The notes below the pieces were generated by a model that was not told the origin of the DNA, made no database searches, and worked only from the letters and a program-made list of their open reading frames with translations. A program made the translations under genes and the position numbers. From Balneolaceae bacterium (GTDB taxonomy: Bacteria > Bacteroidota > Rhodothermia > Balneolales > Balneolaceae), in NCBI GenBank assembly GCA_036381435.1, contig DASVCW010000045.1:54616-118615 (forward strand): a stretch of 64,000 nucleotides of DNA, in the 5' to 3' direction. This document shows positions 5,069 through 35,437 of the stretch, one piece after another; the stretch's first letter is position 1, and each line of letters begins with the position of its first letter.

Positions 5069-7195
5069 TTATTTGCTGTTACTCATGGCTTCGATGTGAG
5101 CTTTAAATGCATTGTAAAGCTCAGCATCTTGCCTTCCGCTTGGCCAGCAAATGTTGCCGCCGTATTCATAACACTTCACATGGTCAATAGTCAACTGCCA
5201 GATTAAACTACCATCGAGTTCAATTTTCTCGGCGGTTTCCCACATATCTTTATAGACCTGTAGCTGAGTGTTATCTCCCCAACCTACATATCCATATTCA
5301 CCCAGTACAAATGGTTTACCTACTTTTTCGGCAATATTTGAAAGGTCAGTAATCCAGGCTCGCTGCGCAGCTATTAGTTCAGAAGTGCTTCTGCCGGCAT
5401 AGCCCCAGTTTGAAGGATACCAGTGCGCCCCTCCGTAGTCAATTTCAGGGATGCTTGTGTTTAGCGTATAGCTCGTACCTAACTCAGCCCGAAGCGGGTA
5501 AGTATTAGCATATTGGCCTACAGAGTAATCAGCGGTTATCGCGGAACCAAATCCTTCTTCACCCGTGGTAACCATGTGATTTGGATCGATAGATTTAATA
5601 TACTGTGCCATTTCCTGGTACCAGTCTCTAAGTTGCTGGGGAGTTCCGTTAGGCATACGTCCTTCATTCATAATTTCCCAGGAGAAGATAGCGGATGAGT
5701 TTTTATACTTTACTCCGGTAACAGTATTGGTACGGTTTAACAGCATTTTGACGTAGTCTTTGAACCATCGCTGGGTATCTGGGTCGTTAATGAAATGCTT
5801 CATTCCACCGCCGGCGTTGCCATCCCATTCGTTATACTGTGGCATACCGCCTAACTCGTGCCAGTAATTAATCAAGGCAACAACAAACCGGATGCCATGT
5901 TCCTTTCCTTTAGCAATTACCTGGTCAAGGTAGCGTAAAGCCTGTTCGTTATACTGGCCCGGTTTCGGCTGTATAGTGATATCATTACCGTATTGAGGAG
6001 CTCCGTCATAAAAACCCCAGATTCGAATCACTTTTACGCCTGCTTCTTCAAAAGCCTCAAGGGTATTGGTAACAAACGTATCATTAATTTTTTGATAAGT
6101 AGGCAGGTAATAAGCATTCGTGCCGGCAAAACGGAAGACTTCACCGTTCAACATAAAATCGCCATTAGAAGCTGTAACTATTCCTTCGGCAGAGGTTGTG
6201 GGCGGTGGGGTTGATACTGCTGCTCCTTCGGTTGTAAATTCATAAATGGCAGACCAGTTTTCGTTATTTTCATCTGCAGCAACTTGAACTCTCCAATAAT
6301 AGGTTTGACTATTTTTAAGATCAGCAACTTCGTAAGAAGGGTCAGAAATCATTTCATCAACTATGGGAGAAGCAAAAGCTTTATCGGTTGCTAATTGAAC
6401 CTGATAAACATCGATGCTTGATTCCTCTTCCCATTTAAGGGTCACTTTGGTGGGTTGATCAGTAGCTTCATTTTCCGGTGAAGTAAGTACAACAGATCCC
6501 GCAGCTTTGGTTCCTGTTTCGAAACTAAACGTGTCAGACCATGCTGTTTCTTCATTCTCAACTACAGGCTTAACACGCCAGTAATAAGTAGTTTGAGTGG
6601 AAACTTCGGTGGTCTGGAAGGCGGCTTCCTGCACTTCTTCTTCAACAACGATGGAGCTGAAATTTTGATCGGTAGCAAGCTGCAAATTATAAGCTGATGC
6701 CGTTGCAACGGTAGTCCATTGCAGTTTAGCATTGGTAGGCACCTTGGTTGCCCCGTCTTTAGGAGATTGCAGTGATGTTGTTACCGGCTCTGAATTTTCA
6801 GCCTCAGCAGCGGTATTAAACATAGAAGTTTCTGACCAAGGACCTTCTTCATTTTGAAGCAGCGGCCTTACTTTCCAGAAAACAGTAGTATCGCCCGGAA
6901 GCGCAGTAACTTTAAAGCTGGTTGAATCAGCTGTGCCGTCAACAATCGGAGATGAAAAATCTTCGGTCGTAGATAACTGTATTTGATAAGAGGTAGCTTG
7001 GTCAACTTTACTCCATTCAAAAGTAAGTGAAGTTGACTCTTTAGAACCATTCTCGGGAGCCAGCAATTGAGGCTGACCTAAATTTTGTTCCTGGCCCAGT
7101 TCTGGTTCTAGGATTGGGGTGACTGAATCTCCGCACTGTACAAAAGCAAGAAGTATAAATATACCGGCGAAGATATTGATTAGTTTAGATTTCAT
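5069..7195 (-). CDS. GH5 glycoside hydrolase (mannanase-like) lipoprotein with three N-terminal fibronectin-III-like repeats
   Basis: Lipobox 'LAFVQC'; three repeats '...Y.LQLATD..F..PIV....YYWRV.P'; GH5 'FAGTNAYY', acid/base 'WEIMNEG', nucleophile 'VLGEYG'. Confidence 0.88.
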   Translation of the reverse strand: MKSKLINIFAGIFILLAFVQCGDSVTPILEPELGQEQNLGQPQLLAPENGSKESTSLTFEWSKVDQATSYQIQLSTTEDFSSPIVDGTADSTSFKVTALPGDTTVFWKVRPLLQNEEGPWSETSMFNTAAEAENSEPVTTSLQSPKDGATKVPTNAKLQWTTVATASAYNLQLATDQNFSSIVVEEEVQEAAFQTTEVSTQTTYYWRVKPVVENEETAWSDTFSFETGTKAAGSVVLTSPENEATDQPTKVTLKWEEESSIDVYQVQLATDKAFASPIVDEMISDPSYEVADLKNSQTYYWRVQVAADENNENWSAIYEFTTEGAAVSTPPPTTSAEGIVTASNGDFMLNGEVFRFAGTNAYYLPTYQKINDTFVTNTLEAFEEAGVKVIRIWGFYDGAPQYGNDITIQPKPGQYNEQALRYLDQVIAKGKEHGIRFVVALINYWHELGGMPQYNEWDGNAGGGMKHFINDPDTQRWFKDYVKMLLNRTNTVTGVKYKNSSAIFSWEIMNEGRMPNGTPQQLRDWYQEMAQYIKSIDPNHMVTTGEEGFGSAITADYSVGQYANTYPLRAELGTSYTLNTSIPEIDYGGAHWYPSNWGYAGRSTSELIAAQRAWITDLSNIAEKVGKPFVLGEYGYVGWGDNTQLQVYKDMWETAEKIELDGSLIWQLTIDHVKCYEYGGNICWPSGRQDAELYNAFKAHIEAMSNSK

Positions 7196-7656
7196 GTTAG
7201 GCTTTATTTTTTTGGGGTTTAGTAAGACAGAAAAAGCCGTTCTTTCCTGTCTTGCCGTTAAGTAGATGTAAATTTAAAAGAAACAGTGAGCTACAATATT
7301 GCTGACATTTCTTTGTCGAAAAATATTGCAGTTGCTTTGCACCAATTAACACAAGCATGTTGCGTTAATTATTACAAAGATCTTTCATACCCGCGCAATC
7401 AAAAAGTTGTTCCCAAACTATAGATAATATTAAGCTTAGACGTGCTGCTTCTTCTGCCTTCGTAAAAAGATGGCTTACAAAGATTTACAGTTCAGGAAGC
7501 AGGGAGAAGGGGAAGGAAGAAGAAAAAAAATCGAAAAAAAATTAAAACTTTTTAGAAAAAGGTGTGCATTTTCGTGTTCATATTGTTCGCATGCAAACGT
7601 AATAACAGTTGAAAGGGCTTGTAATAAATATTGAAGATCAGGGTAATATTTTGAAC

Positions 7657-7693
7657 AAAAAAAGCCCCTTCCGAAGAGAAATCCGGAAGGGGC
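7657..7693 (-). terminator. Rho-independent terminator after the second GH5
   Basis: Minus strand: gccccttccg-loop-cggaaggggc followed by 7 T. Confidence 0.8.
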
Positions 7694-7796
7694 CTGGGTT
7701 GTGCCGTCTGATAAAATGGAGGAGAGAAAGTCTTAAAAATTTAAGCTCCTTTCATATTCACCCGACCGCAAGACCACGCCCGGATGGTAAGACTTT

Positions 7797-9056
7797 TTAT
7801 AGCTTATTCATCTGCTCTGTATGTGTAACAAATTCATTATATAATACTTCATCACCTCTTCCGCCGGGCCAGCAGATATTGCCGCCATACTCCTTACATT
7901 TTGTTTTATCGGCTGTAAGCTGCCATAGAAGACTTCCATCAAGCTTAATTCTTTCAGCCTGATCCCAAAGATTGTAATAAAAAGTCTCAACCTGGCTGTT
8001 GCCCCAGCCCGGAAATCCATATTCGCCCAGTACAAAAGGCTTGCCGAGGTTTTCCGCAATTTGAACATGATCGTTTATCCACGCGCGTTGAGATTTCATC
8101 ATCGCCTCGTTGACCTCTTCGCCTAATCCCCACTCCGTTGGATACCAGTGAGCGGTTCCATAATCAATCTCGGGAATAGCAGTATTCATCTTATAGCTGG
8201 TGCCCCTCTTAGCGCGAAGAACATAGGTACTGCTATATTGATCGGCAGAATATTCAGGCGGAACTCCTTCATCAAATCCCTCTTCGCCGGTTGCCACCAT
8301 ATGATTGGAATCAATAGATTTTATATATCGCGCAATCTCCTGGTACCAGTCTCTTAACTCTGCGGCAGTCCCTTTAGGCAAACGACCTTCATTTATGATC
8401 TCCCAAGAGAAGATAGCGGGGGAGTTTTTATATTTCACTCCTGTTACCGTGTTAGTTCTATTCAACAGCATTTTGATATAATCCTTGTACCACCGCTGAG
8501 TATCGGGATCGTTAATGAAATGTTTCATACCCGCATTCGGATGGCCATCCCATTCGTTGTACTGGCGTATACCGCCTAACTGTTTCCAAAAATTTGTAAG
8601 GGTGATGATAAAGCGAATCCCATGCTTTTTGCCCTGGGCGATTACCTTATCAAGATAGCGCAGTGCCTGTTCGTTATACTGACCCGGTTTGGGTTGTATG
8701 GTGATGTCGTTATTGTATTGGGGAGGGCCGTCATAAAATCCCCACATGCGAACTACTTTTATTCCGGACTTTTTAAAAAGGTCGAAGGTTTTACTTACTA
8801 ATTGAGGATTTATCTTTTGGTAGTTCGGTAAGTAGTAAGCATTGGTTCCGGAAAAATGGAAGCGCTCACCGTTAAGAACAAAATTCCCATTTTTAGCGCT
8901 TACAAAAGATCCGCTTACAGGATCAGAAACTTCAGGGAGAGGAGAGGGTTTTTTAGGCGCATCAACCGCCCGGTTTGATTCTGTTCCGGTTAAAGAATCG
9001 CATTGCACAAAAGTGAGTACCATCAATAAGGTTACAAGTATGTTGATAATTCTCAT
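7797..9056 (-). CDS. GH5 glycoside hydrolase (mannanase-like) lipoprotein
   Basis: Lipobox 'LTFVQC'; 'WEIINEG' and 'VLGEYG' catalytic motifs; paralog of 5069 and 9836. Confidence 0.88.
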   Translation of the reverse strand: MRIINILVTLLMVLTFVQCDSLTGTESNRAVDAPKKPSPLPEVSDPVSGSFVSAKNGNFVLNGERFHFSGTNAYYLPNYQKINPQLVSKTFDLFKKSGIKVVRMWGFYDGPPQYNNDITIQPKPGQYNEQALRYLDKVIAQGKKHGIRFIITLTNFWKQLGGIRQYNEWDGHPNAGMKHFINDPDTQRWYKDYIKMLLNRTNTVTGVKYKNSPAIFSWEIINEGRLPKGTAAELRDWYQEIARYIKSIDSNHMVATGEEGFDEGVPPEYSADQYSSTYVLRAKRGTSYKMNTAIPEIDYGTAHWYPTEWGLGEEVNEAMMKSQRAWINDHVQIAENLGKPFVLGEYGFPGWGNSQVETFYYNLWDQAERIKLDGSLLWQLTADKTKCKEYGGNICWPGGRGDEVLYNEFVTHTEQMNKL

Positions 9057-9372
9057 ATTAATAAATTATAATTTGTTGGATAGTATTTTGTTTAGTTTTA
9101 TTACCACCATGTAACTATAATAATTACAACATATTGTGCGTAAATTCTTACATAGTAAATTTTTTTATTTTACAAAGTATGATGGAGATAAGAGACAAAA
9201 GAATAGAAGAATAAATGAGGGGATTTTTGCCATTTTTAATGGAAGCAGAAGAGGGGAGAGAATTTTGAAAAGGGAGTGGGATTCTAAAACTATGAGCGTC
9301 GGTATCTATAAACGAAAGAGTCATTTAGTAGGATGGGTTGCCAACCCGGCGAAGGAAAGAGTAACTATTAAC

Positions 9373-9657
9373 TTAACGTGAGTTCGAGATAAGATTATTT
9401 CTGCATAAAATCCCGAAGGGATTGAACGTGAATAGCCCCGAATAGGCCGAAGGCATAATTCGGGGTTAAAAAAATAACATGACAAACCCCAAAGGGGTTG
9501 AACCTGCCCGTGTATTCAACCCCTTTGGGGTTGTGGTAGCGCCTGTATTAAATCACCGGATTTTATCCGGTGCTATTCACATTAAAGCCCTTCGGGTTTG
9601 ATTTTGTGCAATAATAATTTAACCAGATCATAGTTGCTTATCTTGAACTCACGTTAA
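9373..9657. mobile_element. non-autonomous element, family B (TIR TTAACGTGAGTTCGAGATAAG) carrying a palindromic cargo
   Basis: 21-bp terminal inverted repeats with 1 mismatch; internal cccgaagggattgaac...aacccctttgggg...caccggattttatccggtg; second copy at 25821..26123. Confidence 0.75.
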
Positions 9658-9810
9658 AATAGAAGTGTAAACCATGTCCCGGAACACCTGTAAAGGATGT
9701 TCCCGGTCTATAGATGGAGAAGGGTCAGGGGGATTGAAAAACCAAGATCTCGATCTATGATGTAAAACCCTATCCCTGCTGCCCAGAACAAATAGCACAA
9801 CGCTTGTAAC

Positions 9811-9834
9811 TGTCGGGCAGGATGCCCGACCTAC
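9811..9834 (-). repeat. GTAG-type REP hairpin
   Basis: Minus strand GTAG-GTCGGGCA-TCC-TGCCCGAC directly after the GH5 stop. Confidence 0.65.
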
Positions 9835-9835
9835 A

Positions 9836-11080
9836 TCAACCCGACACCCCGTTTGTTACGTTATTAATATGAACAGTGAACTCTTGGTACAACCGCTGGT
9901 CGCGGCGAGCGCCCGGCCAGCAGATATTACCGCCGTATTCGTAACATTTTATATGGTTGGTGGTAAGTTGCCACAGCAAGCTGCCGTCGAGTTCAATCTT
10001 TTCTGCGTAAGCCCAGAGATGGTTATAAACCTCCAGGACGCTCTCATCACCCCAGCCAGAGAAGCCATATTCGCCCAGCACAAATGGTTTGCCCAGCTCA
10101 GCGGCAATTTTAGCGTGATCATAAATCCAGGCGCGTTGAGCTTTCAGTAAATCGGCATCGGCTTTATGGCCAAAGCCCCAGCCGTTCGGATACCAGTGGG
10201 CCGTTCCATAATCAATTTCCGGGATTGCGGTATTTAAAATGTAGCTGCTGCCAATACCCGACCTTAGCACATAAGTGTTGGAATATTGATCAACGGAATA
10301 GGGGGAAGCGGGGGAATTCATTTTCACTTCCTGACCTTCTTCACCGGTCGCAACCATGTGATTGGGATCGATGGATTTTATGTATTGAGCAATTTCGCGA
10401 TACCAGTCCCGCAATTCGGTAGGATCTCCATCAGGCAGGCGGCCTTCATTCATAATTTCCCAGGAAAAGATAGCCGGCTCGTTTTTATATTTCACTCCTG
10501 TTACGGTATTGGTGCGATTGAGTAACATTTTGATATAATTCTTATACCATCGCTGGGTATCCGGGTCGTTGATGAAATGCTTCATGCCTGCATCGGGATG
10601 TCCGTCCCACTCATTATACTGAGGTACGCCGCCTAATTCTTCCCAGTAATTTATCAGGGTGATGATAAAACGAATACCTCGTTTTTTGCCCATTGCGATG
10701 AGCTGATCAAGATAGCGCAGGTTTTCTTCACTGTAAGCACCGGGCCGGGGCTGCAAGGTGATGTCATTTTCGAACTGGGGAGGTCCGTCATAAAATCCCC
10801 AAGTTCTGACTACCGTAATTCCCGCTTTTTCAAAGATATCAAGTGTCTTTTCAACAAATTCAGGTTTTATTTTTTGATAGTTGGGAAGGTAATAGGCATT
10901 GGTACCTACAAAGCGAAATTTATGTCCGTTAATTACAAAATCATTGCCTTTGGCTTGTACAAAAGCGTCTGGAAATTTTTTAGTTAGCGGAACACTACTT
11001 TTAGCAGCCGGAGCTCCCTGATTAAACAACTGGATGAACAAAAGTAAAAGCGGTGCCAAATATGTCTTTAAAAAAGCCAT
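9836..11080 (-). CDS. GH5 glycoside hydrolase (mannanase-like), signal peptide without lipobox
   Basis: Hydrophobic N-terminus without Cys; 'FVGTNAYY', 'WEIMNEG', 'VLGEYG'. Confidence 0.88.
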   Translation of the reverse strand: MAFLKTYLAPLLLLFIQLFNQGAPAAKSSVPLTKKFPDAFVQAKGNDFVINGHKFRFVGTNAYYLPNYQKIKPEFVEKTLDIFEKAGITVVRTWGFYDGPPQFENDITLQPRPGAYSEENLRYLDQLIAMGKKRGIRFIITLINYWEELGGVPQYNEWDGHPDAGMKHFINDPDTQRWYKNYIKMLLNRTNTVTGVKYKNEPAIFSWEIMNEGRLPDGDPTELRDWYREIAQYIKSIDPNHMVATGEEGQEVKMNSPASPYSVDQYSNTYVLRSGIGSSYILNTAIPEIDYGTAHWYPNGWGFGHKADADLLKAQRAWIYDHAKIAAELGKPFVLGEYGFSGWGDESVLEVYNHLWAYAEKIELDGSLLWQLTTNHIKCYEYGGNICWPGARRDQRLYQEFTVHINNVTNGVSG

Positions 11081-11350: not shown

Positions 11351-12388
11351 TTATTTAGGTGATACATTCTGGTAAATAAATTCTTTATAAAAGGATGGAG
11401 GTATTACATTATATCCTCTCTTAATTTTTTCAATTTGTGAAGGTTCTAATTCATAGCTCCATTTATCAATTTCCTGCCGGCTTATTCGCTTTGTACTATA
11501 GCCTTTCCCTTTTTTATTTAAAGCATCAATCTTATCATCAATCGTATCAGACCAGTCAAGGTTTAGCTGTTTATATAGTTTCTTGAATTTCTGTTTAGGA
11601 TGTAAACATACATCCTCGTGCTTAACCACACTCCAATCAGGATTTTCCTTTATTTGGCAGGCTAAAATATAGTAGAAGATCGCTACCTGTGCGCCGGCTT
11701 TTTCCAGGGGGTCTTTTAAGGCATAAATTTTATCAATATATGGTTGAAGATAATCATCAACCAGCGCCTTTTGAATGATGAGATTTCTGTTAATATCAGG
11801 ATTCTTGATTCTTAAATGACTGGATATGATACTTGCGGGATGCCGGAGAATGATTAAAACTTTTGTGTTAAAAACGGATCGAAGGTTTGCTAATGCAAGC
11901 AGACAATGAACCGATTTAATCAGCGGGATTTTTTTGTGCCTGTTGAACCTTACAAAAAGTTGAAGAAAGGTATAAAACATCGTTGCCAGCTTTAGGCGTA
12001 AGTTTTGGCTTGTGGTTTGTATCCGTATGCTATTTGCAGTTGCTTGCTCAGGATTGCACTTTTGGTATATTTCACGCTCGGCTGTAGCTAAATTTATATT
12101 TAACAGTTTTTTTATAGCCAGGCTTGGTTTCGAATATTCATGGATATAATGGTCGGAAATCGCTTTCCTAAAAATGGTGTATAACCCATTATTACTGTTA
12201 TCGGCTTTTAAGTAGGGAAAGCGGTGCAAATGCTGCTTGTGTATATAACCCAGAAGATTATTATGTTCATTATCCGGTTCATAGTAACCCTTAACTTTAT
12301 CGGAATAACACAAAACTTCTGCAATCCATGAAGTGCCGGATCTGGGAATACCGGTTACTAAAATCATATCCCTTTTTTCTTTTTCCAT
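11351..12388 (-). CDS. PAPS-dependent sulfotransferase
   Basis: 5'-PSB loop 'GIPRSGTSW' and 3'-PB 'IILRHPASIISS'; start placed at ATG 12388 (ORF track uses GTG 12409; ATG 12367 also possible). Confidence 0.85.
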   Translation of the reverse strand: MEKEKRDMILVTGIPRSGTSWIAEVLCYSDKVKGYYEPDNEHNNLLGYIHKQHLHRFPYLKADNSNNGLYTIFRKAISDHYIHEYSKPSLAIKKLLNINLATAEREIYQKCNPEQATANSIRIQTTSQNLRLKLATMFYTFLQLFVRFNRHKKIPLIKSVHCLLALANLRSVFNTKVLIILRHPASIISSHLRIKNPDINRNLIIQKALVDDYLQPYIDKIYALKDPLEKAGAQVAIFYYILACQIKENPDWSVVKHEDVCLHPKQKFKKLYKQLNLDWSDTIDDKIDALNKKGKGYSTKRISRQEIDKWSYELEPSQIEKIKRGYNVIPPSFYKEFIYQNVSPK

Positions 12389-12469
12389 ATGTAATATTGC
12401 TAAGTGCACCAGTTCTCTTGTTGAAGATGGTTTTACTGAATTAAGAGCGTTAAAATGAATCTAACCGAA

Positions 12470-12690: not shown

Positions 12691-13899
12691 TTACTTAAAA
12701 GCAGATTTTTTAACGGCCTGAAGCAGGGGATCATTGACTTCACGCAAACGACTTTGAAAATAAGCGCCTCCTAATTCCCAAAGCATCACCCCGCCCAGCC
12801 TTTCTCTTTTCACGTATTCAATTTTATGTTCGATTGATCGTTCATTTTCAAAAGAAATAAAAGCCATCGGTTCTTCAAGATTTAAATAGGGAACTTTAGC
12901 ATGTTCATCCCATAAAGCCTCATCAAGGTTGAACCGGCGGCTAAGTTCGGTAAACGGGATGCCTTCGGGACGCTCGAAAATTGAGGTGTCTTGTAAGGGC
13001 CAGCTTTCCCATTTTCCCATAAAATGAACAGAATTCCATCGATAGCCATAAAAATTGATTCCGATGCCGATTTTGTTTCGCTCAATGCCCAAGTCAATGG
13101 CTTGCTCAATTATTTGACTTATACTCGGGAAAAGCTGCTGAGAGTTTTCAAAATTATATTTTTGGTTAAATAAAGCCGAATTATGCCACGCTTGCCAGCC
13201 TCTTAAGGGCTGAGCCATGTTATAAGTCATTATGTTTATCTGCTCAAAATAATCCTGAAGCGACGCATGCAGGCTAAGGGCGCTTACGTTGGCTGATGTA
13301 GCCGCCGTTATCATTAATTCTTCATCTCTTATATTTTCAAGAGCAGTAAAAGTAGCATCCAACTGGATTACAAGCTGCCGGTAATTATCATAGTCGCTTT
13401 CTTCGAGCGGATTCATGTTTAAACTGACACCGTCAAAATTATAAACAGTGATCATATTTATGATAGTGTCAATAAGCTGAGCCCGGTTAGTATCGTTAAT
13501 AGCACTGCTAAAGCCATCGTAATTATCGCGGCCGCCTACGGCAAACAGAATTTTAGTATCATTGGTATGGGCGGCAGGCACAATAGATCGTAACTTAGCC
13601 GCATTGAAAACAGCATCAGAATCAAGGCTGTCTTCCGGTGTTCCGTCAGGTGCGACAGACAGCGTAAAATATGTTAAATGCGTCATTGCGTCCCAGTCGA
13701 TATTTCCTGTGCCGATGGAACCGTTGGCCGCGTTAATACCAATATTATGTTGCCGGGCCGCGAGATAACCGTTTACCCAGATACCTTCATTTCCGGTGAT
13801 ACCCGAATTATTTTGAAAAAGACCACAAGACGTAACGATTAAAGCAGTACAGACTGCTAAAATGCTTTGCATAATCGTCTTGAGATACATTTTTTCCAT
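12691..13899 (-). CDS. GH18 chitinase-fold lipoprotein, catalytic motif degenerate
   Basis: Lipobox 'LIVTSC'; 'KILFAVGG', 'IMTYNM', 'GINFYG', 'KIEYVKRERLGGVMLWELG'; DxDxE motif reads 'FDGVSLNMN'. Confidence 0.85.
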   Translation of the reverse strand: MEKMYLKTIMQSILAVCTALIVTSCGLFQNNSGITGNEGIWVNGYLAARQHNIGINAANGSIGTGNIDWDAMTHLTYFTLSVAPDGTPEDSLDSDAVFNAAKLRSIVPAAHTNDTKILFAVGGRDNYDGFSSAINDTNRAQLIDTIINMITVYNFDGVSLNMNPLEESDYDNYRQLVIQLDATFTALENIRDEELMITAATSANVSALSLHASLQDYFEQINIMTYNMAQPLRGWQAWHNSALFNQKYNFENSQQLFPSISQIIEQAIDLGIERNKIGIGINFYGYRWNSVHFMGKWESWPLQDTSIFERPEGIPFTELSRRFNLDEALWDEHAKVPYLNLEEPMAFISFENERSIEHKIEYVKRERLGGVMLWELGGAYFQSRLREVNDPLLQAVKKSAFK

Positions 13900-13926
13900 C
13901 TTTATTTATGTTCTTCCTAACCATGA

Positions 13927-15864
13927 TTAAAAGTACGAGATGGTAGGTTCGTTCAAATGTTTTGAAATTTTATTTTTAGCTTCGGTACCGTTTAAAATAC
14001 TTTTTAAGCGTATGTGCAGACGTTTTATCGTTATCCCTTTGGCTTCTGCCAGCTTTTTCATACGGTTAAAGTTTTCGGCTTTAATATCCTCATCGCATAT
14101 AAAAATGCAGTCCACTTCCATATTTCGCAGCGTCTTCGAGAGTTTCCAGTAGCCGCCCAAAACCGGGTAGCCGTAGATTAACTTTCCTTCCATATCGCAG
14201 TCGTCATCCAGAAAACCAAGCACTTTAAATTTACTGTTCGATGAATTATTGATTTTATGCAAAATCATCGTTCCATTTTCATTAGCGCCGTAAATGAGTA
14301 CGTTTTCCCCCGTTTTTTTATAACGGTTAAACCAGTAGCTTAAAGCCTGGTAGGCAATGCGAATTCCTAAGGTGAAGGTCAGCAGGAGGTAAAAATCGAG
14401 GACCAAAAACTGGAGTGCCGAGATAAAGGGAAATCCATCCATCACAAGAAGGGCACAAGCGGTTCCGAAAACGGCATAAACGACCGAAGAGGTAATTTTT
14501 AACACATTGCCAATACCCATTTGTTTAATTTTTTCACGGTAGAGGCCTGTTATCCAGAAGGTAAAGAGCTGGACGGAAATCACCATAATCATGACCTGTT
14601 CAAAATTCAGAAACTGTACTGAAGACGGGTTGATGCTGTATAAAAGCTTATAGCTTAGCATATAAGAAGCGGCAACAAAAATGAGATCAATCAAACCTAA
14701 GAACATCGCGCGGTTTAAAATCCACCGCTCATAAATGGGCAGCATCATCCCGTTATTAAAAATGGCAATTTCACGATAGCGCAGTTTTTTTATACCATGG
14801 AAAAGCACAAATCCCAGCATCAGCCCGATAATCAACAGCATTTCTATATTATCAACTTGAGTGATGGCAAAAGCACCCAGCGCAAAAAAAGCGGACACAA
14901 AATAAAGCAGCAATACGGTGTTTCTGTGGGTTAGCCCCAGGGAAAGCAGCTGGTGATGAATATGGGAGCTATCGGGCGTAAACATTTCATGAAGTTTGCC
15001 GGCCAAAGATTTGGACTTCTCTTTTGACCGCTCGGGCATATATCCCCCTAAGAATCTCCGTAGCATCGAAATTAAAGTATCGGTGATGGGAAATCCAAGT
15101 ACGAGCATGGGAAAGAGCAGAGCAAAACCGGTAGAAATTTTAGTAGTGCTTTGAATAGACATTAGCGCCATCGAAAAGCCGATAAACAGGCTCCCCGAAT
15201 CACCTAAAAATATTTTGGCGGGGCTAAAATTATAGCGCAGAAAACCGACTAAAGCCCCTGCCATAACAAGCGCTAAGGCAGCGATTAAAAATTCACCTGA
15301 AAGAGCGGAAACCGTAAATATGGATATACTGGCGATGGTAGCAACACCCGAGGCAAGTCCGTCAAGGCCATCAATCAAATTAAAGGCATTGGTGATGCCT
15401 ACAATCCACAAAAGGGTGAGGGGAAAGTCGATCATTTCGACATTCAGCATTCCGCTTCCCACGGGATTTGTGATATTTGATATTTTAAAACCGGCGAAAT
15501 AAACAGCGGCTGCTATTATAAACTGGACGCCGAATTTTATGCCCGGTTTTAAAGGTTTAAGGTCATCCCAAAAGCCTAAAAGAAAAATGCCTAAGAAGCA
15601 GAACGGGATGATATATACTTGCCAATCGGCAGCTTCTAAATGACTGGCAAGCTCCGGAAAAATGATAAAAATCAAACCGACAGACACGATGGCACTGCTA
15701 AAAACAGCTAAGCCACCCAGTCGCGGTGTTACCGAGGTATGAATTTTTCGTCCACCGGGATTATCAACGGCATTAATTTGCAGGGCAAATTTAACAACCC
15801 AGGGTGTTATTATGAGAGACAGAATAACAGGTATGATGAACGATGTAATAAATTCTGCAGACAT
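13927..15864 (-). CDS. WecA/TagO (MraY-like) undecaprenyl-phosphate sugar-1-P transferase fused to extra TM helices and a Rossmann-like domain
   Basis: 'RKIHTSVTPRLGG', 'LGFWDD', 'NAFNLIDGLDGLA', 'FLGDSGS', 'HIHH'; C-terminal 'VLIYGANENG...LGFLDDD...GYPVLG'. Confidence 0.88.
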   Translation of the reverse strand: MSAEFITSFIIPVILSLIITPWVVKFALQINAVDNPGGRKIHTSVTPRLGGLAVFSSAIVSVGLIFIIFPELASHLEAADWQVYIIPFCFLGIFLLGFWDDLKPLKPGIKFGVQFIIAAAVYFAGFKISNITNPVGSGMLNVEMIDFPLTLLWIVGITNAFNLIDGLDGLASGVATIASISIFTVSALSGEFLIAALALVMAGALVGFLRYNFSPAKIFLGDSGSLFIGFSMALMSIQSTTKISTGFALLFPMLVLGFPITDTLISMLRRFLGGYMPERSKEKSKSLAGKLHEMFTPDSSHIHHQLLSLGLTHRNTVLLLYFVSAFFALGAFAITQVDNIEMLLIIGLMLGFVLFHGIKKLRYREIAIFNNGMMLPIYERWILNRAMFLGLIDLIFVAASYMLSYKLLYSINPSSVQFLNFEQVMIMVISVQLFTFWITGLYREKIKQMGIGNVLKITSSVVYAVFGTACALLVMDGFPFISALQFLVLDFYLLLTFTLGIRIAYQALSYWFNRYKKTGENVLIYGANENGTMILHKINNSSNSKFKVLGFLDDDCDMEGKLIYGYPVLGGYWKLSKTLRNMEVDCIFICDEDIKAENFNRMKKLAEAKGITIKRLHIRLKSILNGTEAKNKISKHLNEPTISYF

Positions 15865-15891: not shown

Positions 15892-16728
15892 TTACAGAAA
15901 TAATTTATTTCCATCAAATTCATAAGGCAGCTGCCAGCTCATTGAAAAGGGCAAGTGCTTGCATTCAATGGTTTTTCCATAAGATAAAATAGCCCCTTGC
16001 AGAATGGCATTTTTAAGCTGCCTTATGTTTCCGGGCCAACTGTATTTAAAGCATTCGCAAAGGGCCTGAGCCGATATACTAAGATTTTTCCATTCACTGT
16101 TTTTCTTTTTTATTTCATCAATAAAATGATCAATAAGAACGGGAATATCTTCTTTTCGTTCGCGCAGCGGCGGCAGCATAACCACCATGGGATCTAACAA
16201 ATCCAGTATTTTGTCCCATAGGGGGGTATCGAAAATTTTGTTAAAAGATTCCTGGTTGAATGAAATAACCAGCCGCGGAATATGCGTCGTATCATAGCGG
16301 AATAACTGCTTGCTGCCTTTCAAAAATGATTTAAGGATGTTGAGCATAAACGCCGGCGGTAATTCCGAGAATTGATCCAGATATAAAATCCCACCGCTGG
16401 CTTTCTCAATGGCATCATATTTCAGAGTGATGTGTTCTTCCTCAAACTGCAAGTGTCCCCAGAAAGCATCTTTGTAGCGCTCTTCATCTACATCTACACA
16501 GTAAAATGAATAAAAAGGGCCGTTTGCGCGGTAGCTGTTTTCATGAATGATATGTGCCAGACGCTTTTTGCCGGAGCCTATTTCACCTACTACAATGGCA
16601 TTTGAGCTCAGTTTTGCCAAGCTAAGAATTTTGTAGAAAATATCACGCATCAACACACTGCGTGATGATTTTTCAACATCGGTTAATTGAGATTCCTGGA
16701 GGTGATTATGTGAGGGAGAAGCAATCAT
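15892..16728 (-). CDS. degenerate sigma-54 activator-like AAA+ domain (pseudo-bEBP), no HTH
   Basis: Walker A 'GEIGSGKK', 'PPLRERKEDIP' and 'WPGNIRQLKN' present; GAFTGA absent, Walker B reads 'LYLDQ', no Fis HTH. Confidence 0.85.
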   Translation of the reverse strand: MIASPSHNHLQESQLTDVEKSSRSVLMRDIFYKILSLAKLSSNAIVVGEIGSGKKRLAHIIHENSYRANGPFYSFYCVDVDEERYKDAFWGHLQFEEEHITLKYDAIEKASGGILYLDQFSELPPAFMLNILKSFLKGSKQLFRYDTTHIPRLVISFNQESFNKIFDTPLWDKILDLLDPMVVMLPPLRERKEDIPVLIDHFIDEIKKKNSEWKNLSISAQALCECFKYSWPGNIRQLKNAILQGAILSYGKTIECKHLPFSMSWQLPYEFDGNKLFL

Positions 16729-17729
16729 CTTATTTGACCGAGGTGTAAAGTTAAAGTTAACTGATGAAAACGCTCATACAAATCATTATCATAAGAGATG
16801 GCGTAGTCTAATTCTATGAAATCACTGATAATACCTATTCCAAATCGCGGGGCCACAACCTCTGTTGCAGATTGAATCATAATGCCCGCCCGCAACGATA
16901 AAAAAGACCAGGGCCGGGCATCTACACCTGCTTTATACCAGATACCGTCCAGGCCAAACCTTTTCTCATTAGCCATTGAAATAACCATATAAGGATCGCG
17001 GGTGTTGACCGGAAAGCGCATAGTAGCGCCCAGTTCCAGAACCTCCCGTAAATTTTGACTTACAAGGGCTGTACGTCCTCCCGAAATAAATCGGTAAATC
17101 ACACTTCTTCCGAGTCCGCGGAATGATAAACCATAACTGACAGACTGAGACGGCGAGTATAAAAGGCCTAAAGTAACAAAGGATGTCCAGTACTGAGCCT
17201 GGCTTTCGTTATTGTTTTGGGCAAACGAAATATTATTCATAATACCCAGGCTTAAAACTCCGTCAATGGTATAAGCGTAAGCCAGGTCTAATTGATATTG
17301 AGTGATGCTTGGCTGAGGCAAGGGGCTTGTTCCCAAGAAATTAGTGGCTGTTATTCCACCGTGATGCATGCCAAATTGTGCCGCAAAAGTGTGCTGAGAT
17401 GAAGCAAAAAGTGGAAAAGTTATATTTTCCAGCATCAGGTTATTGTTCCAGTTTTGGTATATATTAAACTGTACTGCATTTAAATTTTTGACGAATGCGA
17501 GCGAAGCGGGATTCATGTTGATAGCCATCAAATCATGAATCCCTGCTACGGTGGCATTTCCCAGAGCAGTAGTTCGGGCGCTGAATTTATAAACGCGTGG
17601 CGCTCCCCTGATGCCGCTCTCTGTATTGGTAGGATCCGTAATTTGCGCTTTTGATTCTGCAGGAAAAATAAAGGCAAAGAGAATGCTGAGGCTTAAAAAA
17701 AGACAATATTTCAAAAATATTTTCATCAA
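16725..17729 (-). CDS. PorV/FadL-like outer-membrane beta-barrel protein
   Basis: Signal peptide, 'SARTTALGNATVA...MNPASLA' resembling the PorV N-terminal motif, then alternating amphipathic beta-strand pattern; 4-bp overlaps with both neighbours. Confidence 0.65.
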   Translation of the reverse strand: MMKIFLKYCLFLSLSILFAFIFPAESKAQITDPTNTESGIRGAPRVYKFSARTTALGNATVAGIHDLMAINMNPASLAFVKNLNAVQFNIYQNWNNNLMLENITFPLFASSQHTFAAQFGMHHGGITATNFLGTSPLPQPSITQYQLDLAYAYTIDGVLSLGIMNNISFAQNNNESQAQYWTSFVTLGLLYSPSQSVSYGLSFRGLGRSVIYRFISGGRTALVSQNLREVLELGATMRFPVNTRDPYMVISMANEKRFGLDGIWYKAGVDARPWSFLSLRAGIMIQSATEVVAPRFGIGIISDFIELDYAISYDNDLYERFHQLTLTLHLGQIR

Positions 17730-18442
17730 TTAACTACTCTAAAAATTCCAAATAACAGAACAATATCTCGCAGAAACTGCGAGGTTTCCCGGATTACATT
17801 TTGTTCTTCTGGCACGTAAACTACATCGCCGGGGTAAACTACTGCCGCGGGATTAGCGCGCCCTCCATCCAAATATTGGGTTAAATCGATAGTAACATTA
17901 TGTAAATCTTCCATTGACCCCGAAGGTTTTCTGTAAATTCTAACATTCCTGAGATCGGCTTGTTCTGATGGCCCGCCCGCCATAGAAAGAACTTTAAAAA
18001 GGGATGCCTTATCTACGACCGGATAATTATCGGGCCGGCTTACCATCCCAAAAACTGATACCAGCATATCATCGGTGCTGCGAACAGAAACCGTTAGATT
18101 GATGTCGCTTTTAATATAGCGCGAGAGCTCCTGTCTTAGTTTTTGTTTAAGTTCATCATTTGTCATACCGGCAACGTTAATTTCACCAATTAACGGCATA
18201 ACAATGGTGCCCATACTTGATACGGTAGTTGAGGTATTAAAATTTGGCTGCTGCCATACCAGAATTTCAACTTGATCACCCGGACTGATTTCATAGAGTG
18301 AATCTACCGGTGCTACATAAATTTGTTCTTCAGTCAGCTCCCGGGCAGTTTTTTCCTGAATATTCCGTGAAGAGATACATCCCTGTAGCAGCAGATAAAA
18401 GCTTGCAACAGCACATAGTTTTAAAATAGTTGTAGTTCTCAT
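17726..18442 (-). CDS. wza: polysaccharide export (OPX/Wza-family) lipoprotein, short form
   Basis: Lipobox 'LLLQGC'; PES motif 'YEISPGDQVEILVW...GTIVMPLIGEINVAGMT'; SLBB 'GMVSRP...AGG...ADLRNV...PGDVVYVP'. Confidence 0.9.
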   Translation of the reverse strand: MRTTTILKLCAVASFYLLLQGCISSRNIQEKTARELTEEQIYVAPVDSLYEISPGDQVEILVWQQPNFNTSTTVSSMGTIVMPLIGEINVAGMTNDELKQKLRQELSRYIKSDINLTVSVRSTDDMLVSVFGMVSRPDNYPVVDKASLFKVLSMAGGPSEQADLRNVRIYRKPSGSMEDLHNVTIDLTQYLDGGRANPAAVVYPGDVVYVPEEQNVIRETSQFLRDIVLLFGIFRVVN

Positions 18443-28893: not shown

Positions 28894-30753
28894 TTAATCA
28901 AGTTGAAATTCTTGTGTCCAGTCTATTTCCTCTTGCAGCTTTTTTTGCTCTCTTTTATCAAACAGGTAATTACCCATCACCAGGTAATCCATTTCGGTGC
29001 GCATAAAACATTGAAAGGCTTCGTCCGGAGTGCAGACAATCGGTTCACCCCGTACGTTAAAACTGGTATTTACCACCATTCCGCAACCTGTTTCTTTTTT
29101 AAATTCATTGATAAGGGACCAATATCTGGCATTCGATTCCTTATTCACGCTTTGCACCCGTGCCGAATAATCGATGTGGGTGATGGCAGGGATATCAGAC
29201 CGCTGGTGATACAGCTTGTCCAGCAAATCCATTTTGTCGTAGCCTTCGGGCAGGGGACAACGATGGCGTTCGGCTACCGGTGTAACTAAAAGCATGTAGG
29301 GTGAAGGCCGGTCGATGTCAAAATATTCCGTTATGTCTTCTTCGAGTACGGAAGGGGCAAACGGACGGAAACTTTCACGATATTTAATCTTAACATTCAT
29401 TTTTTTCTGCATTTCGGGGTTACGTGCATCGCCCAAAATGCTACGATTTCCTAATGCCCGGGGACCGTATTCCATTCGTCCCTGAAACCAACCGACTACA
29501 TTGCCATCTGCCAACAATTTTGCCGTTTCGGAGGCCAAATCATTAAAATTTTTGTGATAATTAAAAGGCGCTTCGTATTTACGCGCTACTTTTTTAATGG
29601 ATGAACCGTTGAAGCGGGGGCCCAGATAAGCACTTTTCATCTTATCAGGCTTGCCGTTCAATCTCCGGTCTTTTTTCATCCAGATATGCCAGGCAGAATA
29701 AGCCGCTCCAAGAGCTCCGCCGGCATCACCCGCAGCAGGTTGAATCCAGATATCTTCGAAAAGCCCTTCTTTTAAAAGCTTTCCGTTGGCCACACAATTT
29801 AAGGCCACTCCTCCGGCCAATACCAGGTAGGGGCTGCGGGTTAACTTTTTGGCTGTGCGGGCCAGTTTTAGCACGATCTCTTCTGTCACTTGTTGAATAG
29901 CCAGGGCCATGTTCATGTATTCCTGGGAGAGTTGACTCTCTTTTTGTCGAGGTGGGATACCGAATAGCTTTTCCCATTTTTTGTCATCAGCCATCCGTAA
30001 TCCGGTAGTAAATTTGAAATAATCCATATTGAAAAGCAGAGAGCCATCATCCCGGATATCCACTAACTCATCAATAATTTTTTGCCTGAACTCTTTGGTT
30101 TGGGCAGCATGAGGATTTCCATATGGAGCTAATCCCATCAGCTTGTATTCACCGCTATTGACTCTAAAACCGGTGTAGTAGGTAAAAGCCGAGTATAAAA
30201 GTCCCACAGAGTGAGGAAAATGTAGCTCTTTGAGTACTTTTATATCATTCCCCTTTCCATAGCCGATCATCGACGTGGCCCATTCGCCTACCCCATCGAT
30301 AGTGAGAATGGCGGCCTCCTGATAAGGAGACGGGTAAAAAGCGCTGGCAGCATGAGAAAGGTGATGCTCGGGAAACAACAGCGGTACGTCGCCGTCGCCC
30401 AATTTAGAAAGTTCGTCTTTGAGCATTTTTTTCATGAACAGCTTTTCCTTAATCCAAACCGGAATGGCGGACAAAAAGCTTTTGAGCCCTGAAGGAGCGA
30501 AGGCGTGGTAGGTTTCCAGCAGACGTTCGAACTTCAGGAATGGCTTGTCGTAAAAAGCAACGGCCGTCAGATCTTTGTAGTCAATACCCGCTTCTTCCAG
30601 CACGTATTTTGCCGCATTTTGTGGAAAAGACGAATCATGCTTTTTACGGGTGAAGCGTTCTTCGTGGGCCGCCGCGATTAGCTGTCCGTCAATTAAAATG
30701 GCAGCGGCACTGTCGTGATAGTAAGCAGAAATACCGAGTATGGTATCAGGCAT
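28894..30753 (-). CDS. O-carbamoyltransferase, NodU/CmcH/SxtI family
   Basis: 'LGISAYYHDSAA', 'EERFTRKKH', 'HHLSHAAS', 'GGVALNCVANG', 'GPRALGNRS', 'NTSFNVRGEPIV'. Confidence 0.95.
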   Translation of the reverse strand: MPDTILGISAYYHDSAAAILIDGQLIAAAHEERFTRKKHDSSFPQNAAKYVLEEAGIDYKDLTAVAFYDKPFLKFERLLETYHAFAPSGLKSFLSAIPVWIKEKLFMKKMLKDELSKLGDGDVPLLFPEHHLSHAASAFYPSPYQEAAILTIDGVGEWATSMIGYGKGNDIKVLKELHFPHSVGLLYSAFTYYTGFRVNSGEYKLMGLAPYGNPHAAQTKEFRQKIIDELVDIRDDGSLLFNMDYFKFTTGLRMADDKKWEKLFGIPPRQKESQLSQEYMNMALAIQQVTEEIVLKLARTAKKLTRSPYLVLAGGVALNCVANGKLLKEGLFEDIWIQPAAGDAGGALGAAYSAWHIWMKKDRRLNGKPDKMKSAYLGPRFNGSSIKKVARKYEAPFNYHKNFNDLASETAKLLADGNVVGWFQGRMEYGPRALGNRSILGDARNPEMQKKMNVKIKYRESFRPFAPSVLEEDITEYFDIDRPSPYMLLVTPVAERHRCPLPEGYDKMDLLDKLYHQRSDIPAITHIDYSARVQSVNKESNARYWSLINEFKKETGCGMVVNTSFNVRGEPIVCTPDEAFQCFMRTEMDYLVMGNYLFDKREQKKLQEEIDWTQEFQLD

Positions 30754-32279: not shown

Positions 32280-33116
32280 ATGAATCGCTCGCGGAAAACC
32301 CCCAATATAAAAGTGCTGATGTATCACCGGTTAAGCAAAGAAAAACCGGAGAAGCTGGGTGATTTGCATGTGGTTCATGTTGATGATTTTCGGCGCCAGT
32401 TAAGACTAATTGAAGCTCTTAATTTCATGCCCATAACTTTTGAAGATTATCTTCTTTACCGGGAAGGAAAGTTAACGCTTCCTAAGAAGCCTATCATTCT
32501 AACTTTTGATGACGGTCATTTAGATACTTTTGAACTGGCGCTGCCCATTCTTAAAGAATTTGATATGCGGGCGGTGATTTTTGTACTTGGAAACAGAAAA
32601 CAACGCTACGCTCACTGGGAGAACAAGCACGATGAAACAAACTATCCGCTGATGGAGGATCAGCATATTATAGAAGCCAGAGAAGACGGTTTTGAAATCG
32701 GAGCACACTCCATGACACATGCCGATTTATCAAAGCTGGGACAAAAAGCCATGCAGCGAGAAATAAAAGGTTCTAAAGAATCTATTGAATCGCTATTGGG
32801 AGAATCTATTGTGAGTTTTGCTTATCCCTTTGGCGGTGTGGCAAGAAATGTAATATCCATTACCCAGCAGGCCGGTTTTAAGTATGGCTGTGGCGTTTAT
32901 ACCGGTCCTCCGAATTTCGGTGATGATAACTTTGATATCCGTAGATTAGCGATTACATCAAAAACCAACACAGCGGCTTTTTTAATGCGTTTGTTAACTC
33001 CTTATGAATATGTAGAGTGGTTTTACGGCAAAATGAAGCATAAGTATGTTTCCATTGATAATGAACCGGAGTTAAACACACCGGCAGTTAATTATGAACG
33101 GACGTTACGGCGATAG
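32280..33116 (+). CDS. NodB/CE4 polysaccharide deacetylase, no signal peptide
   Basis: 'LMYHR', 'TFDDG', 'HSMTH', 'FAYPFG'. Confidence 0.92.
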   Translation: MNRSRKTPNIKVLMYHRLSKEKPEKLGDLHVVHVDDFRRQLRLIEALNFMPITFEDYLLYREGKLTLPKKPIILTFDDGHLDTFELALPILKEFDMRAVIFVLGNRKQRYAHWENKHDETNYPLMEDQHIIEAREDGFEIGAHSMTHADLSKLGQKAMQREIKGSKESIESLLGESIVSFAYPFGGVARNVISITQQAGFKYGCGVYTGPPNFGDDNFDIRRLAITSKTNTAAFLMRLLTPYEYVEWFYGKMKHKYVSIDNEPELNTPAVNYERTLRR

Positions 33117-34330: not shown

Positions 34331-35437
34331 TTGAGGACACTATTTTTAATTTCGAAGGGTATGAACAAACTATCAGATGAAGAGATCAGATTTTTGGAGG
34401 AAAGGGATTTATGTCCGCGAGTTTCATTATTAGAGGAGGAATTGAATACGCAACTGTTAGATGAACGATATTTACAAACTATTCCACTTATCAGGAAAAT
34501 GATTTATAAGCTATTGCCTGTCAACTTTGCCCTGATCATGGAGGCCTGGATTATTCACCGGCAGTATGATGCCGTTCTTTCGTATTACGAACGCGTAGGT
34601 TTGCCTTTCGCCTACTTACAAAAAATATTCGGCTCCGATACTCCTCACATTTTGCTCACTACCTGGCTTAGCTCAGATGCAAAAGTGTGGTTTCTAAAGC
34701 GGGTTCATGAAAAGCTATCAAAAATTGTGACCTGGTCATCTGTGCAGCGTGATTATGCCATTAACGAGATAGGCGTTTCACCCGAAAAAATTAAACTGCT
34801 AAAGCGCGGAACAGATCAAAAATTCTGGCGCCCGATGAAAGCAGAGACAGATATGATTTGCTCCGCTGGCATGGAGATGAGGGATTACCCCACAATGATA
34901 GAAGCACTAAAATCATTAGATATTCCTTGCCACATCGCCACCGGAAAAGCCCGGGGACAATTATTCGATACGGTTAAAAGGCTATACGAAATGGACGATA
35001 TCCCAAGGCACATTACCGTGGGCAGCAAATCGTATTTGCAAATGAGAGAGATGTATGCACGCAGCCGTTTTGTGGTGGTGCCGTTGCTTGAAACCGACAC
35101 CGATAACGGTTTAACAGTCATTCTGGAAGCTATGGCCATGGGCAAAGCGGTAATTTGTTCAGAAGTAGAGGGGCAAGTTGATGTGATTGAAGACGGCGTA
35201 ACCGGTGTTTATGTGCCACAGGGTGATGCAAAAGCACTTAGAAAGGCGATTCTTGATCTTTGGAATAATCCCGAAAAGGCTGAAAAAATGGGAAAAGCTG
35301 CTCGCGAACACATAGAAAAGGTTCATAATCTCGAGCAGTTTGTTGATGGAATTAAAGCAGAAATAACGAAAAAGACCAATGGCGTGCGCGAAACAGTCGG
35401 CAGCCTTGGTATAGAAAAAGCCAGTGTTGAAGTATGA
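34331..35437 (+). CDS. GT4 glycosyltransferase, tandem paralog (TTG start)
   Basis: Shares 'DMICSAGMEMRDYPT' and 'DNGLT.ILEAMAMGKAVICS' with 33125..34246. Confidence 0.9.
   Translation: MRTLFLISKGMNKLSDEEIRFLEERDLCPRVSLLEEELNTQLLDERYLQTIPLIRKMIYKLLPVNFALIMEAWIIHRQYDAVLSYYERVGLPFAYLQKIFGSDTPHILLTTWLSSDAKVWFLKRVHEKLSKIVTWSSVQRDYAINEIGVSPEKIKLLKRGTDQKFWRPMKAETDMICSAGMEMRDYPTMIEALKSLDIPCHIATGKARGQLFDTVKRLYEMDDIPRHITVGSKSYLQMREMYARSRFVVVPLLETDTDNGLTVILEAMAMGKAVICSEVEGQVDVIEDGVTGVYVPQGDAKALRKAILDLWNNPEKAEKMGKAAREHIEKVHNLEQFVDGIKAEITKKTNGVRETVGSLGIEKASVEV

Follow-up and report, generated by a model that had tools for sequence, protein, structure and literature searches.

Gene content and order of the locus

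The window analysed here, a stretch of 64,000 nucleotides from contig DASVCW010000045.1 of a soil Balneolaceae bacterium, encodes on its minus strand a lipoprotein with the fold of the glycoside hydrolases of family 18 (GH18) in which the catalytic acids of the family are missing. The name GH18x is used here for this acid-less protein. The features of its gene and of the neighbouring genes are as follows.

12691..13899, minus strand: GH18x, open reading frame of 402 aa
13825..13899, minus strand: signal peptide and lipobox V-T-S-C25 of GH18x, read from the sequence
13780..13824, minus strand: tether peptide after the lipobox Cys, GLFQNNSGITGNEGI; clade consensus after the Cys D-L-F-x-N-x-S-G-x-P-I-N-E
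13399..13437, minus strand: degenerate catalytic motif F155-D-G-V-S-L-N-M-N-P-L-E-E167 (canonical DGxDxDxE), from the ChiW alignment and the clade table
13219..13230, minus strand: degenerate MxYD motif of strand 6, M224-T-Y-N227, with D227 changed to N, from the clade comparison
13201..13203, minus strand: R233, an Arg beside the +2-subsite-type Trp position, present in 36/36 acid-less proteins versus S, E or G in the intact clade
13927..15864, minus strand: WecA-like polyprenyl-phosphate HexNAc-1-P transferase fused to a CoA_binding_3 module (PF00953, E=1.8e-41; TIGR02380, E=7.7e-35)
15892-16728, minus strand: sigma-54 AAA-like protein (Pfam, conserved order)
16725-17729, minus strand: barrel protein of 334 aa (Pfam, conserved order)
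17726-18442, minus strand: short Wza (Pfam, conserved order)
11351..12409, minus strand: lineage-specific sulfotransferase (PF13469/PF00685) between the GH18x and GH5 genes
5069..11080, minus strand: three GH5 genes downstream of GH18x, a conserved component of the locus (Pfam and synteny)

Genes for Wzz, a CbiA-type kinase, Wzy and Wzx are found on the divergent strand. The remaining genes of the locus code for a WecG/TagA-family transferase and several glycosyltransferases, for a CE4 polysaccharide deacetylase and a GH9 protein, and also for a carbamoyltransferase, FemAB-like GNAT enzymes and ATP-grasp ligases. The WecA-like transferase, the WecG/TagA-family transferase and the CE4 deacetylase suggest that the product is a decorated polymer with amino sugars, and this gene content points to the kind of ligand that the -1 pocket of a GH18 protein would recognise.

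GH18x and the upstream WecA-like gene are separated by 27 bp (13900-13926) and not by 28 bp as first reported. This spacer and the conserved gene order suggest that the two genes are co-expressed. Terminator and promoter signals that could mark the end of the operon were searched for, and none was convincing.

The gene order of the locus recurs in 25 Balneolales loci, which stem from named genomes and from metagenomes. In all 18 loci which harbour an acid-less GH18 protein the genes are arranged as Wza-barrel-AAA-WecA-GH18, with the acid-less gene directly behind the WecA-like one, so that the protein belongs to the exopolysaccharide (EPS) operon. Three configurations can be distinguished. In type (a) the WecA-like gene is followed by the acid-less GH18 gene and then by the GH5 genes; this type comprises the window and 13 other loci, including that of the cultured Gracilimonas tropica DSM 19535. 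Type (b), found in four loci (L002, L009, L013, L016), has an acid-less and an intact GH18 gene in tandem behind the WecA-like gene, while the seven loci of type (c) contain an intact GH18 gene alone. In the genome to which the window belongs (2.98 Mb, 99.97% complete) GH18x is the sole GH18 protein, and the same holds for the acid-less protein in five of eight other genomes of type (a). Since there is no other GH18 protein in its own genome, GH18x works without an active paralog.

Fold and family of GH18x

The Pfam profile PF00704 (Glyco_hydro_18) matches residues 65-377 of GH18x with an E-value of 1.6e-48 and covers profile positions 15-315 of 317. At the sequence level there are further matches to many chitinases and chitinase-like proteins of solved structure. 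An AlphaFold2 model based on an alignment of 84 sequences (pLDDT 93.6, pTM 0.89) shows a signal helix at the N-terminus, a linker modelled with low confidence and a (beta/alpha)8 barrel that carries an insertion domain. When this model was compared with the PDB using Foldseek, the top matches were GH18 chitinases and the chi-lectins BRP-39, YKL-40, YKL-39 and Ym1/Ym2, with E-values of 1e-23 to 1e-25 to GH18 structures and TM scores up to 0.83. By profile match as well as by its barrel with insertion domain GH18x is thus a member of family GH18.

The catalytic residues are lost

The sequence 'FDGVSLNMNP' comprises residues 155-164 of GH18x (window positions 13408-13437). In a phmmer alignment with the chitinase ChiW (5gzu) 'DGVSLNMN' of GH18x is placed over 'DGIDLDWE', and consequently the catalytic Asp pair and the acid/base Glu correspond to S159, N161 and N163 (D159 to S, D161 to N, E163 to N). 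The only acid left in the motif is D156, the first structural Asp of DxxDxDxE. Both the HMM alignment and the model, with its high confidence, rule out a misaligned motif. The other positions by which an active GH18 enzyme is recognised are altered as well. The SxGG motif of strand 3 reads AVGG, the MxYD motif of strand 6 reads MTYN, and D282 of strand 7, present in every member of the intact sister clade, is an Asn. The original prediction that the GH18 motif reads S-L-N-M-N and that the catalytic acids are gone is therefore borne out by the ChiW alignment and the clade table. Its further statement that the other fold motifs remain holds only in part, given the changes in MxYD, SxGG and D282.

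The same picture emerges from the relatives of GH18x described below. Across the acid-less clade the position of the catalytic Glu is occupied by T, V, I, A or a gap. The Asp of MxYD is conserved in 23/23 intact proteins versus D17/N9/E5 in the acid-less clade, where the Tyr of this motif is relaxed too (Y27/F4/H3). With neither the Glu and assisting Asp of DxxDxDxE nor the MxYD and SxGG motifs in place, GH18x is very probably a pseudoenzyme.

Origin of the acid-less clade

A search of 5.8 billion proteins yielded 89 relatives of GH18x, most of them from Balneolaceae. They fall into two groups, one with the intact motif DGVDLDME and one with the degenerate motif DGV[S/N]L[N/S]M[T/N/V/I/S/A]. 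Maximum-likelihood analysis placed the acid-less proteins in a single clade (36 rows, SH-aLRT 99) with the intact proteins as its sister (23 rows, SH-aLRT 95), and both are part of a Balneolales-specific clade with a support of 100. A second tree was built after 14 diagnostic columns had been masked and more distant representatives, found by searching 1.84 billion cluster representatives exhaustively, had been added. Also in this tree all 38 acid-less proteins cluster together without any intact member among them (SH-aLRT 91). Only three or four of the top 150 representatives at 50% identity belong to the acid-less clade, which therefore is compact and lineage-specific.

The only change common to all 38 acid-less proteins is the loss of the Glu. 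Basal members show intermediate states at the motif positions (D-N-R in P0092, N-D-D in P0036), from which we conclude that the remaining acids decayed stepwise. Pairwise dN/dS values of GH18x for unsaturated ortholog pairs are 0.08-0.17 and can not be distinguished from those of the neighbouring genes (WecA-like, AAA-like, barrel, Wza). These values and the 38 conserved members rule out a decaying pseudogene. The loss of the acids is old, single in origin and maintained under purifying selection; the question whether orthologs share the substitution, raised with the original prediction, can be answered with yes for one old clade. GH18x thus combines a lost Glu, a kept fold and selective maintenance, as is typical for chi-lectins.

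Residues retained and gained

Within the mature domain 152 positions are conserved to at least 95% in the intact clade, and 88 of these are kept in the acid-less clade. Retention is as low as 0-3% for D159, D161, E163 and D282 and for R310/G312, which belong to a short loop deleted in most acid-less members; GH18x and its 83%-identical relative still possess this loop. Five residues, N43 (strand 1), T76 (strand 2), P231, R233 and P258, are specific gains of the acid-less clade, each present in 36/36 sequences. This pattern of residues looks like a refitted barrel core rather than drift. A further residue gained by the clade, R367, is conserved in 34/36 acid-less members; it precedes strand 8 at the bottom of the barrel and is thus ruled out as a cleft residue.

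Statements on the cleft of GH18x are derived from the alignment and the secondary structure. Most Trp and Tyr at positions that stack against sugars in chitinases are conserved clade-wide to at least 90%, as is seen for W41, Y45, W49, W232, W235, W238, W288, W330 and W374. Exceptions are GH18x and the 83%-identical relative, in which W49 of the YxxxW motif is replaced by Arg and W232, beside R233, by Leu. There is no ground to presume chitin-like binding in the GH18x lineage, where two Trp of the cleft have been exchanged, and W49R and W232L could mean that binding is weakened or altered there. The canonical GGW Trp of the +1 subsite is absent from both Balneolales clades, which indicates a ligand other than classical chitin; even the intact Balneolales GH18 proteins are, judged by their residues, unlikely to be classical chitinases.

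The sulfotransferase of the PAPS type which follows GH18x is also found downstream of the 83%-identical relative, and it is absent for a 59%-identical relative and from all other loci. Sulfotransferase and Trp replacements have to be counted as one evolutionary event and hence no more than hint at an adaptation of the cleft to a sulfated polymer.

E166 of 'PLEE' is present in 26/36 acid-less proteins versus about 1/23 intact ones. In the model it is the N-cap residue of helix 4 and follows the old catalytic position by three residues. Positions 166 and 233 are charge-complementary, with the combination E/R found 27 times, R/E four times, R/R once and E/E never. This pairing suggests a salt bridge or a shared ligand contact rather than a relocated catalytic acid. 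The top of the barrel contains no invariant acid that is specific for the acid-less clade.

Lipobox and tether peptide

The lipobox of GH18x is embedded in the context MEKMYLKTIMQSILAVCTALI-VTSC25, and its Cys is invariant in 20/20 aligned members. Together, these two observations support the proposal that GH18x is a lipoprotein. All full-length acid-less members possess both lipobox and tether and are thus bacterial lipoproteins, while about 20/23 intact paralogs lack a lipobox and begin with a plain hydrophobic segment.

The GH18x version of the conserved peptide behind the Cys is CGLFQNNSGITGNEG. Among 144 predicted lipoproteins of the same genome only one, GH18x itself, carries this motif, and a general lipoprotein sorting signal is thereby ruled out. 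An N-glycosylation sequon (N-x-S) is ruled out as well, as the Ser is not conserved and several members read N-D-P.

The same tether peptide is found on lipoproteins with CARDB repeats. In a small and phylogenetically clustered sample these proteins fill the slot in 4/7 loci without a GH18x protein and in 0/18 loci with one. In the four loci concerned, all of type (c), they are encoded between the WecA-like gene and the intact GH18 gene, and mature N-termini of the CARDB proteins read CDMFTNDPG, CDLFNNNPD, CETFTNDPG, CEVFTNDSG and CEVFKNETG. No CARDB-repeat lipoprotein with the tether was found in the genome of the window. The distribution suggests that the slot encodes a lipid-anchored, non-catalytic protein with a binding or adhesive function, which would be addressed by a locus-specific peptide.

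Proposed history and function

The simplest history of the acid-less proteins is a duplication, one inactivation and a repeated loss of the intact copy. The ancestral Wzx/Wzy exopolysaccharide locus of Balneolales would have contained an intact GH18 gene, which was presumably duplicated in tandem before one copy lost its acid/base Glu. Decay of the other acids would have followed, together with a refitting of the barrel core by N43, T76, P231, R233 and P258, and the inactivated copy would have carried the lipobox and the conserved tether peptide. Later the intact copy may have been lost repeatedly, so that in many lineages, that of GH18x included, the dead copy outlived its active paralog. Where an intact paralog is present, it is likely the counterpart of the processing hydrolases of other EPS operons, by analogy with these.

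On balance we favour, with somewhat better than even confidence, that GH18x is a non-catalytic, membrane-anchored binder of the HexNAc-containing polysaccharide made by its own locus, which tethers or guides this polymer. We infer its ligand, its compartment and its role as tether or chaperone. Such a binder, which had been put forward with the original prediction, fits four observations: the synteny conserved behind the WecA-like gene, the lipid anchor, an aromatic core that is retained, and the replacement by CARDB proteins in some loci. GH18x would bind the polymer without cutting it and would either hold it at the envelope or guide it to the exporter formed by Wza and the barrel protein. 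Its place would be the periplasmic face or the cell surface.

One alternative is that GH18x is still an enzyme, using E166/E167, E375 (after the Trp of strand 8) or another chemistry, for example as an Arg-assisted lyase acting on an uronate-containing EPS. The enrichment of E166 and the invariance of R233 in the acid-less clade would be explained in this way, and in the related family GH85 an Asn stands in for the assisting Asp. [quoted passage not shown] However, the barrel top has no invariant acid beyond those common to the intact clade, the replacements at the Glu position are diverse, and Tyr and Asp of MxYD are relaxed. The 'PLEE' Glu, which had been named beforehand as a possible substitute, probably does not take this part: E166 is absent in 10/36 members, among them the Gracilimonas subclade with its cultured representative, and its charge pairing with R233 speaks for a salt bridge. 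A lyase would furthermore be without parallel, as we know of no polysaccharide lyase with a TIM barrel, and overall we regard remaining enzymatic activity as quite improbable. Somewhat less improbable, though still unlikely, is that GH18x serves the export apparatus as a structural or docking subunit, or acts as an anchor that binds peptidoglycan. It would then be kept for contacts with Wza, the barrel protein, WecA or Wzc and would bind little or no EPS. Such a subunit could account for the strictly conserved gene order, for a locus-specific tether peptide shared with the unrelated CARDB lipoproteins of the same slot and for the tolerated loss of two cleft Trp in the GH18x lineage; with AlgG and AlgX of the alginate system, scaffold roles independent of catalysis are known. 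Against this role speak the clade-wide conservation of most of the cleft-type aromatic and polar core, and the fact that the acids were not replaced randomly but by amide and hydroxyl residues still able to form hydrogen bonds with sugars.

Two further roles involve other glycosidases of the locus. Plant XIP-type inhibitors are catalytically dead GH18 folds which inhibit other glycosidases, and since GH5 genes are always located downstream, GH18x could in principle act as an inhibitor or regulator of the GH5 (or GH9) hydrolases and protect the nascent polymer. Yet loci without GH18x retain the same GH5 genes, and XIP proteins are not characterised by a lipid anchor or a tether, which makes this role very improbable. 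Least probable, with hardly any chance of being correct, is that the acid-less proteins are accessory partners of an intact GH18 paralog, as heterodimer or substrate presenter. Tandem pairs in the four independent loci of type (b) would agree with it, but the genome of the window and five others have no further GH18 protein, and for the window's genome a partnership with an active paralog is thus ruled out.

The favoured polymer binder can be extended to a more speculative model, to which we give a modest chance. The slot behind the initiating transferase would hold an interchangeable lipoprotein for retaining the polymer, either a dead GH18 or a CARDB-repeat protein, and both would be addressed by the motif C-[DE]-x-F-x-N-x-x-G through docking to a Wza/PorV-like exporter or through a dedicated sorting step. 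With W49R, W232L and the invariant R233, the cleft of the GH18x lineage would have adapted to an anionic polymer, sulfated or of another kind, in line with the adjacent sulfotransferase. If true, this would be an undescribed modular way to anchor or hand over a secreted polysaccharide.

Comparison with known systems

Dead glycosidases serving as lectins are well known from animals and plants. The chi-lectins (YKL-40/CHI3L1, BRP-39, Ym1, YKL-39) are the best structural matches to GH18x, with TM scores of 0.79-0.83. Like GH18x they have a (beta/alpha)8 GH18 fold with an insertion domain in which the catalytic Glu and the assisting Asp are missing. An aromatic cleft, largely kept in chi-lectins, is predicted from the alignment for the acid-less clade, with W49 and W232 replaced in GH18x itself. 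In fold and type of loss GH18x is therefore chi-lectin-like, a bacterial counterpart of the chi-lectins. However, chi-lectins are eukaryotic, secreted and soluble, whereas GH18x is a bacterial protein with a lipid anchor, and its gene is part of an operon for EPS biosynthesis. The loss of the acids is an event independent of that in chi-lectins, the canonical GGW Trp is missing, and the ligand of GH18x is probably a heteropolysaccharide of the cell itself.

From bacteria, to our knowledge, lectins derived from dead glycosidases have been described only sporadically and in catabolic loci. By its setting the closest documented case is BACOVA_03431 of Bacteroides ovatus, an inactive GH10 surface lipoprotein that binds xylan and belongs to a catabolic locus (PMC4491172). 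It shares with GH18x the lipid anchor, the bacterial superphylum and a glycosidase fold with lost catalytic residues. The two differ in family, and BACOVA_03431 is part of a polysaccharide-utilisation locus for the capture of food glycans and not of a biosynthesis and export operon; moreover, it has been shown to bind its glycan, while binding by GH18x is predicted.

A location in the biosynthesis or export operon of the polymer itself is known for PslG, BcsZ, PelA and the C-terminal GH153 domain of PgaB, which are located in the envelope and act on or bind the nascent polymer. In contrast to GH18x these proteins are active, and the PgaB domain keeps a catalytic Asp where GH18x has no clade-conserved candidate acid. 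As a functional analogue we propose Wzi, an outer-membrane lectin which anchors group 1 capsule and is encoded beside wza in Wzy-dependent loci. Both would be lectins that hold a polymer on the cell, although Wzi, an integral beta-barrel, has no homology to the lipoprotein TIM barrel of GH18x.

In the literature we found nothing specific on GH18 pseudoenzymes in EPS loci or in Balneolaceae, and no description of a Wzx/Wzy biosynthesis operon in which a dead GH18 protein, or another dead glycosidase of any family, is conserved. Here a pseudo-GH18 protein has been conserved under selection in an operon for the biosynthesis and export of a polysaccharide, and many genomes have it in place of the active enzyme from which it originated. 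The different locus types (dead protein only, dead plus active, and active only with or without CARDB lipoproteins) represent a natural comparative experiment which could separate binding from cutting by operon-encoded glycosidases, a question that stands for PslG, BcsZ, PelA, AlgL and PgaB alike. As Gracilimonas tropica DSM 19535 is a cultured relative with the same arrangement, this is accessible to testing.

Lipoproteins sharing the position behind the WecA-like gene

The acid-less GH18 lipoproteins have in common with unrelated CARDB-repeat lipoproteins a peptide C-[DE]-x-F-x-N-x-[SP]-G after the lipobox cysteine, and in other Balneolales loci these CARDB-repeat proteins occupy the same position behind the WecA-like transferase gene. 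Among the 144 predicted lipoproteins of the window genome only one carries the peptide, namely the acid-less GH18 protein itself (GH18x).

Window 13780-13824 (-), conserved post-Cys peptide of GH18x
L008:6604-9835, CARDB-repeat lipoprotein slot
L010:6130-9803, CARDB-repeat lipoprotein slot
L015:4609-9832, CARDB-repeat lipoprotein slot

Sulfotransferase insertion and wider locus

Between GH18x and the GH5 genes a sulfotransferase gene is inserted in the window lineage and its 83% relative (L085) only; no such insertion was found in about 24 other Balneolales loci compared. It co-occurs with the replacements W49R and W232L in GH18x, which affect two cleft-type tryptophans otherwise conserved in the clade. 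The wider locus also contains the other genes listed here. Its product is probably an amino-sugar heteropolysaccharide with heavy modification, and members of several hydrolase families (three GH5, GH9 and the dead GH18) would serve this polymer.

Window 11351-12409 (-), sulfotransferase (PF13469/PF00685)
Window 28894-30753 (-), carbamoyltransferase
Window 32280-33116 (+), CE4 polysaccharide deacetylase
Window 35434-37143 (+), GH9 with CelD_N domain
Window 47108-47881 (-), WecG/TagA-family transferase

Motif degeneration in related proteins

Basal members of the acid-less clade (L017:10007-11212; P0036, P0056, P0092) show the intermediate motifs N-M-D-M-D, N-I-Q-M-D and D-L-N-L-R. Basal forms with a Glu to Asp exchange might have kept weak activity, and these intermediate members would help to retrace the sequence in which the acids were lost. 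The distant representatives include two giant proteins, P0111 with 5937 aa and P0129 with 1932 aa, in which five or six GH18 domains follow one another in tandem; the motifs are degenerate in both, reading D-A-E in P0111 and having lost the Glu in P0129.

Sigma-54-activator-like genes near GH18 genes

The operon of the acid-less GH18 gene (window 12691-13899) also contains a sigma-54 AAA+ paralogue (window 15892-16728). Outgroup GH18 homologs from Ignavibacteriota, Bacteroidota and Verrucomicrobiota (loci L040, L047, L052, L055, L062, L063, L075, L077, L080 and L082), which often occur as tandem pairs, repeatedly have as their neighbour a gene resembling sigma-54 activators, encoded on the opposite strand. 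In Balneolales loci such a gene is likewise located at the end, past the GH5 genes. The linkage of GH18 and sigma-54-activator genes may be old.
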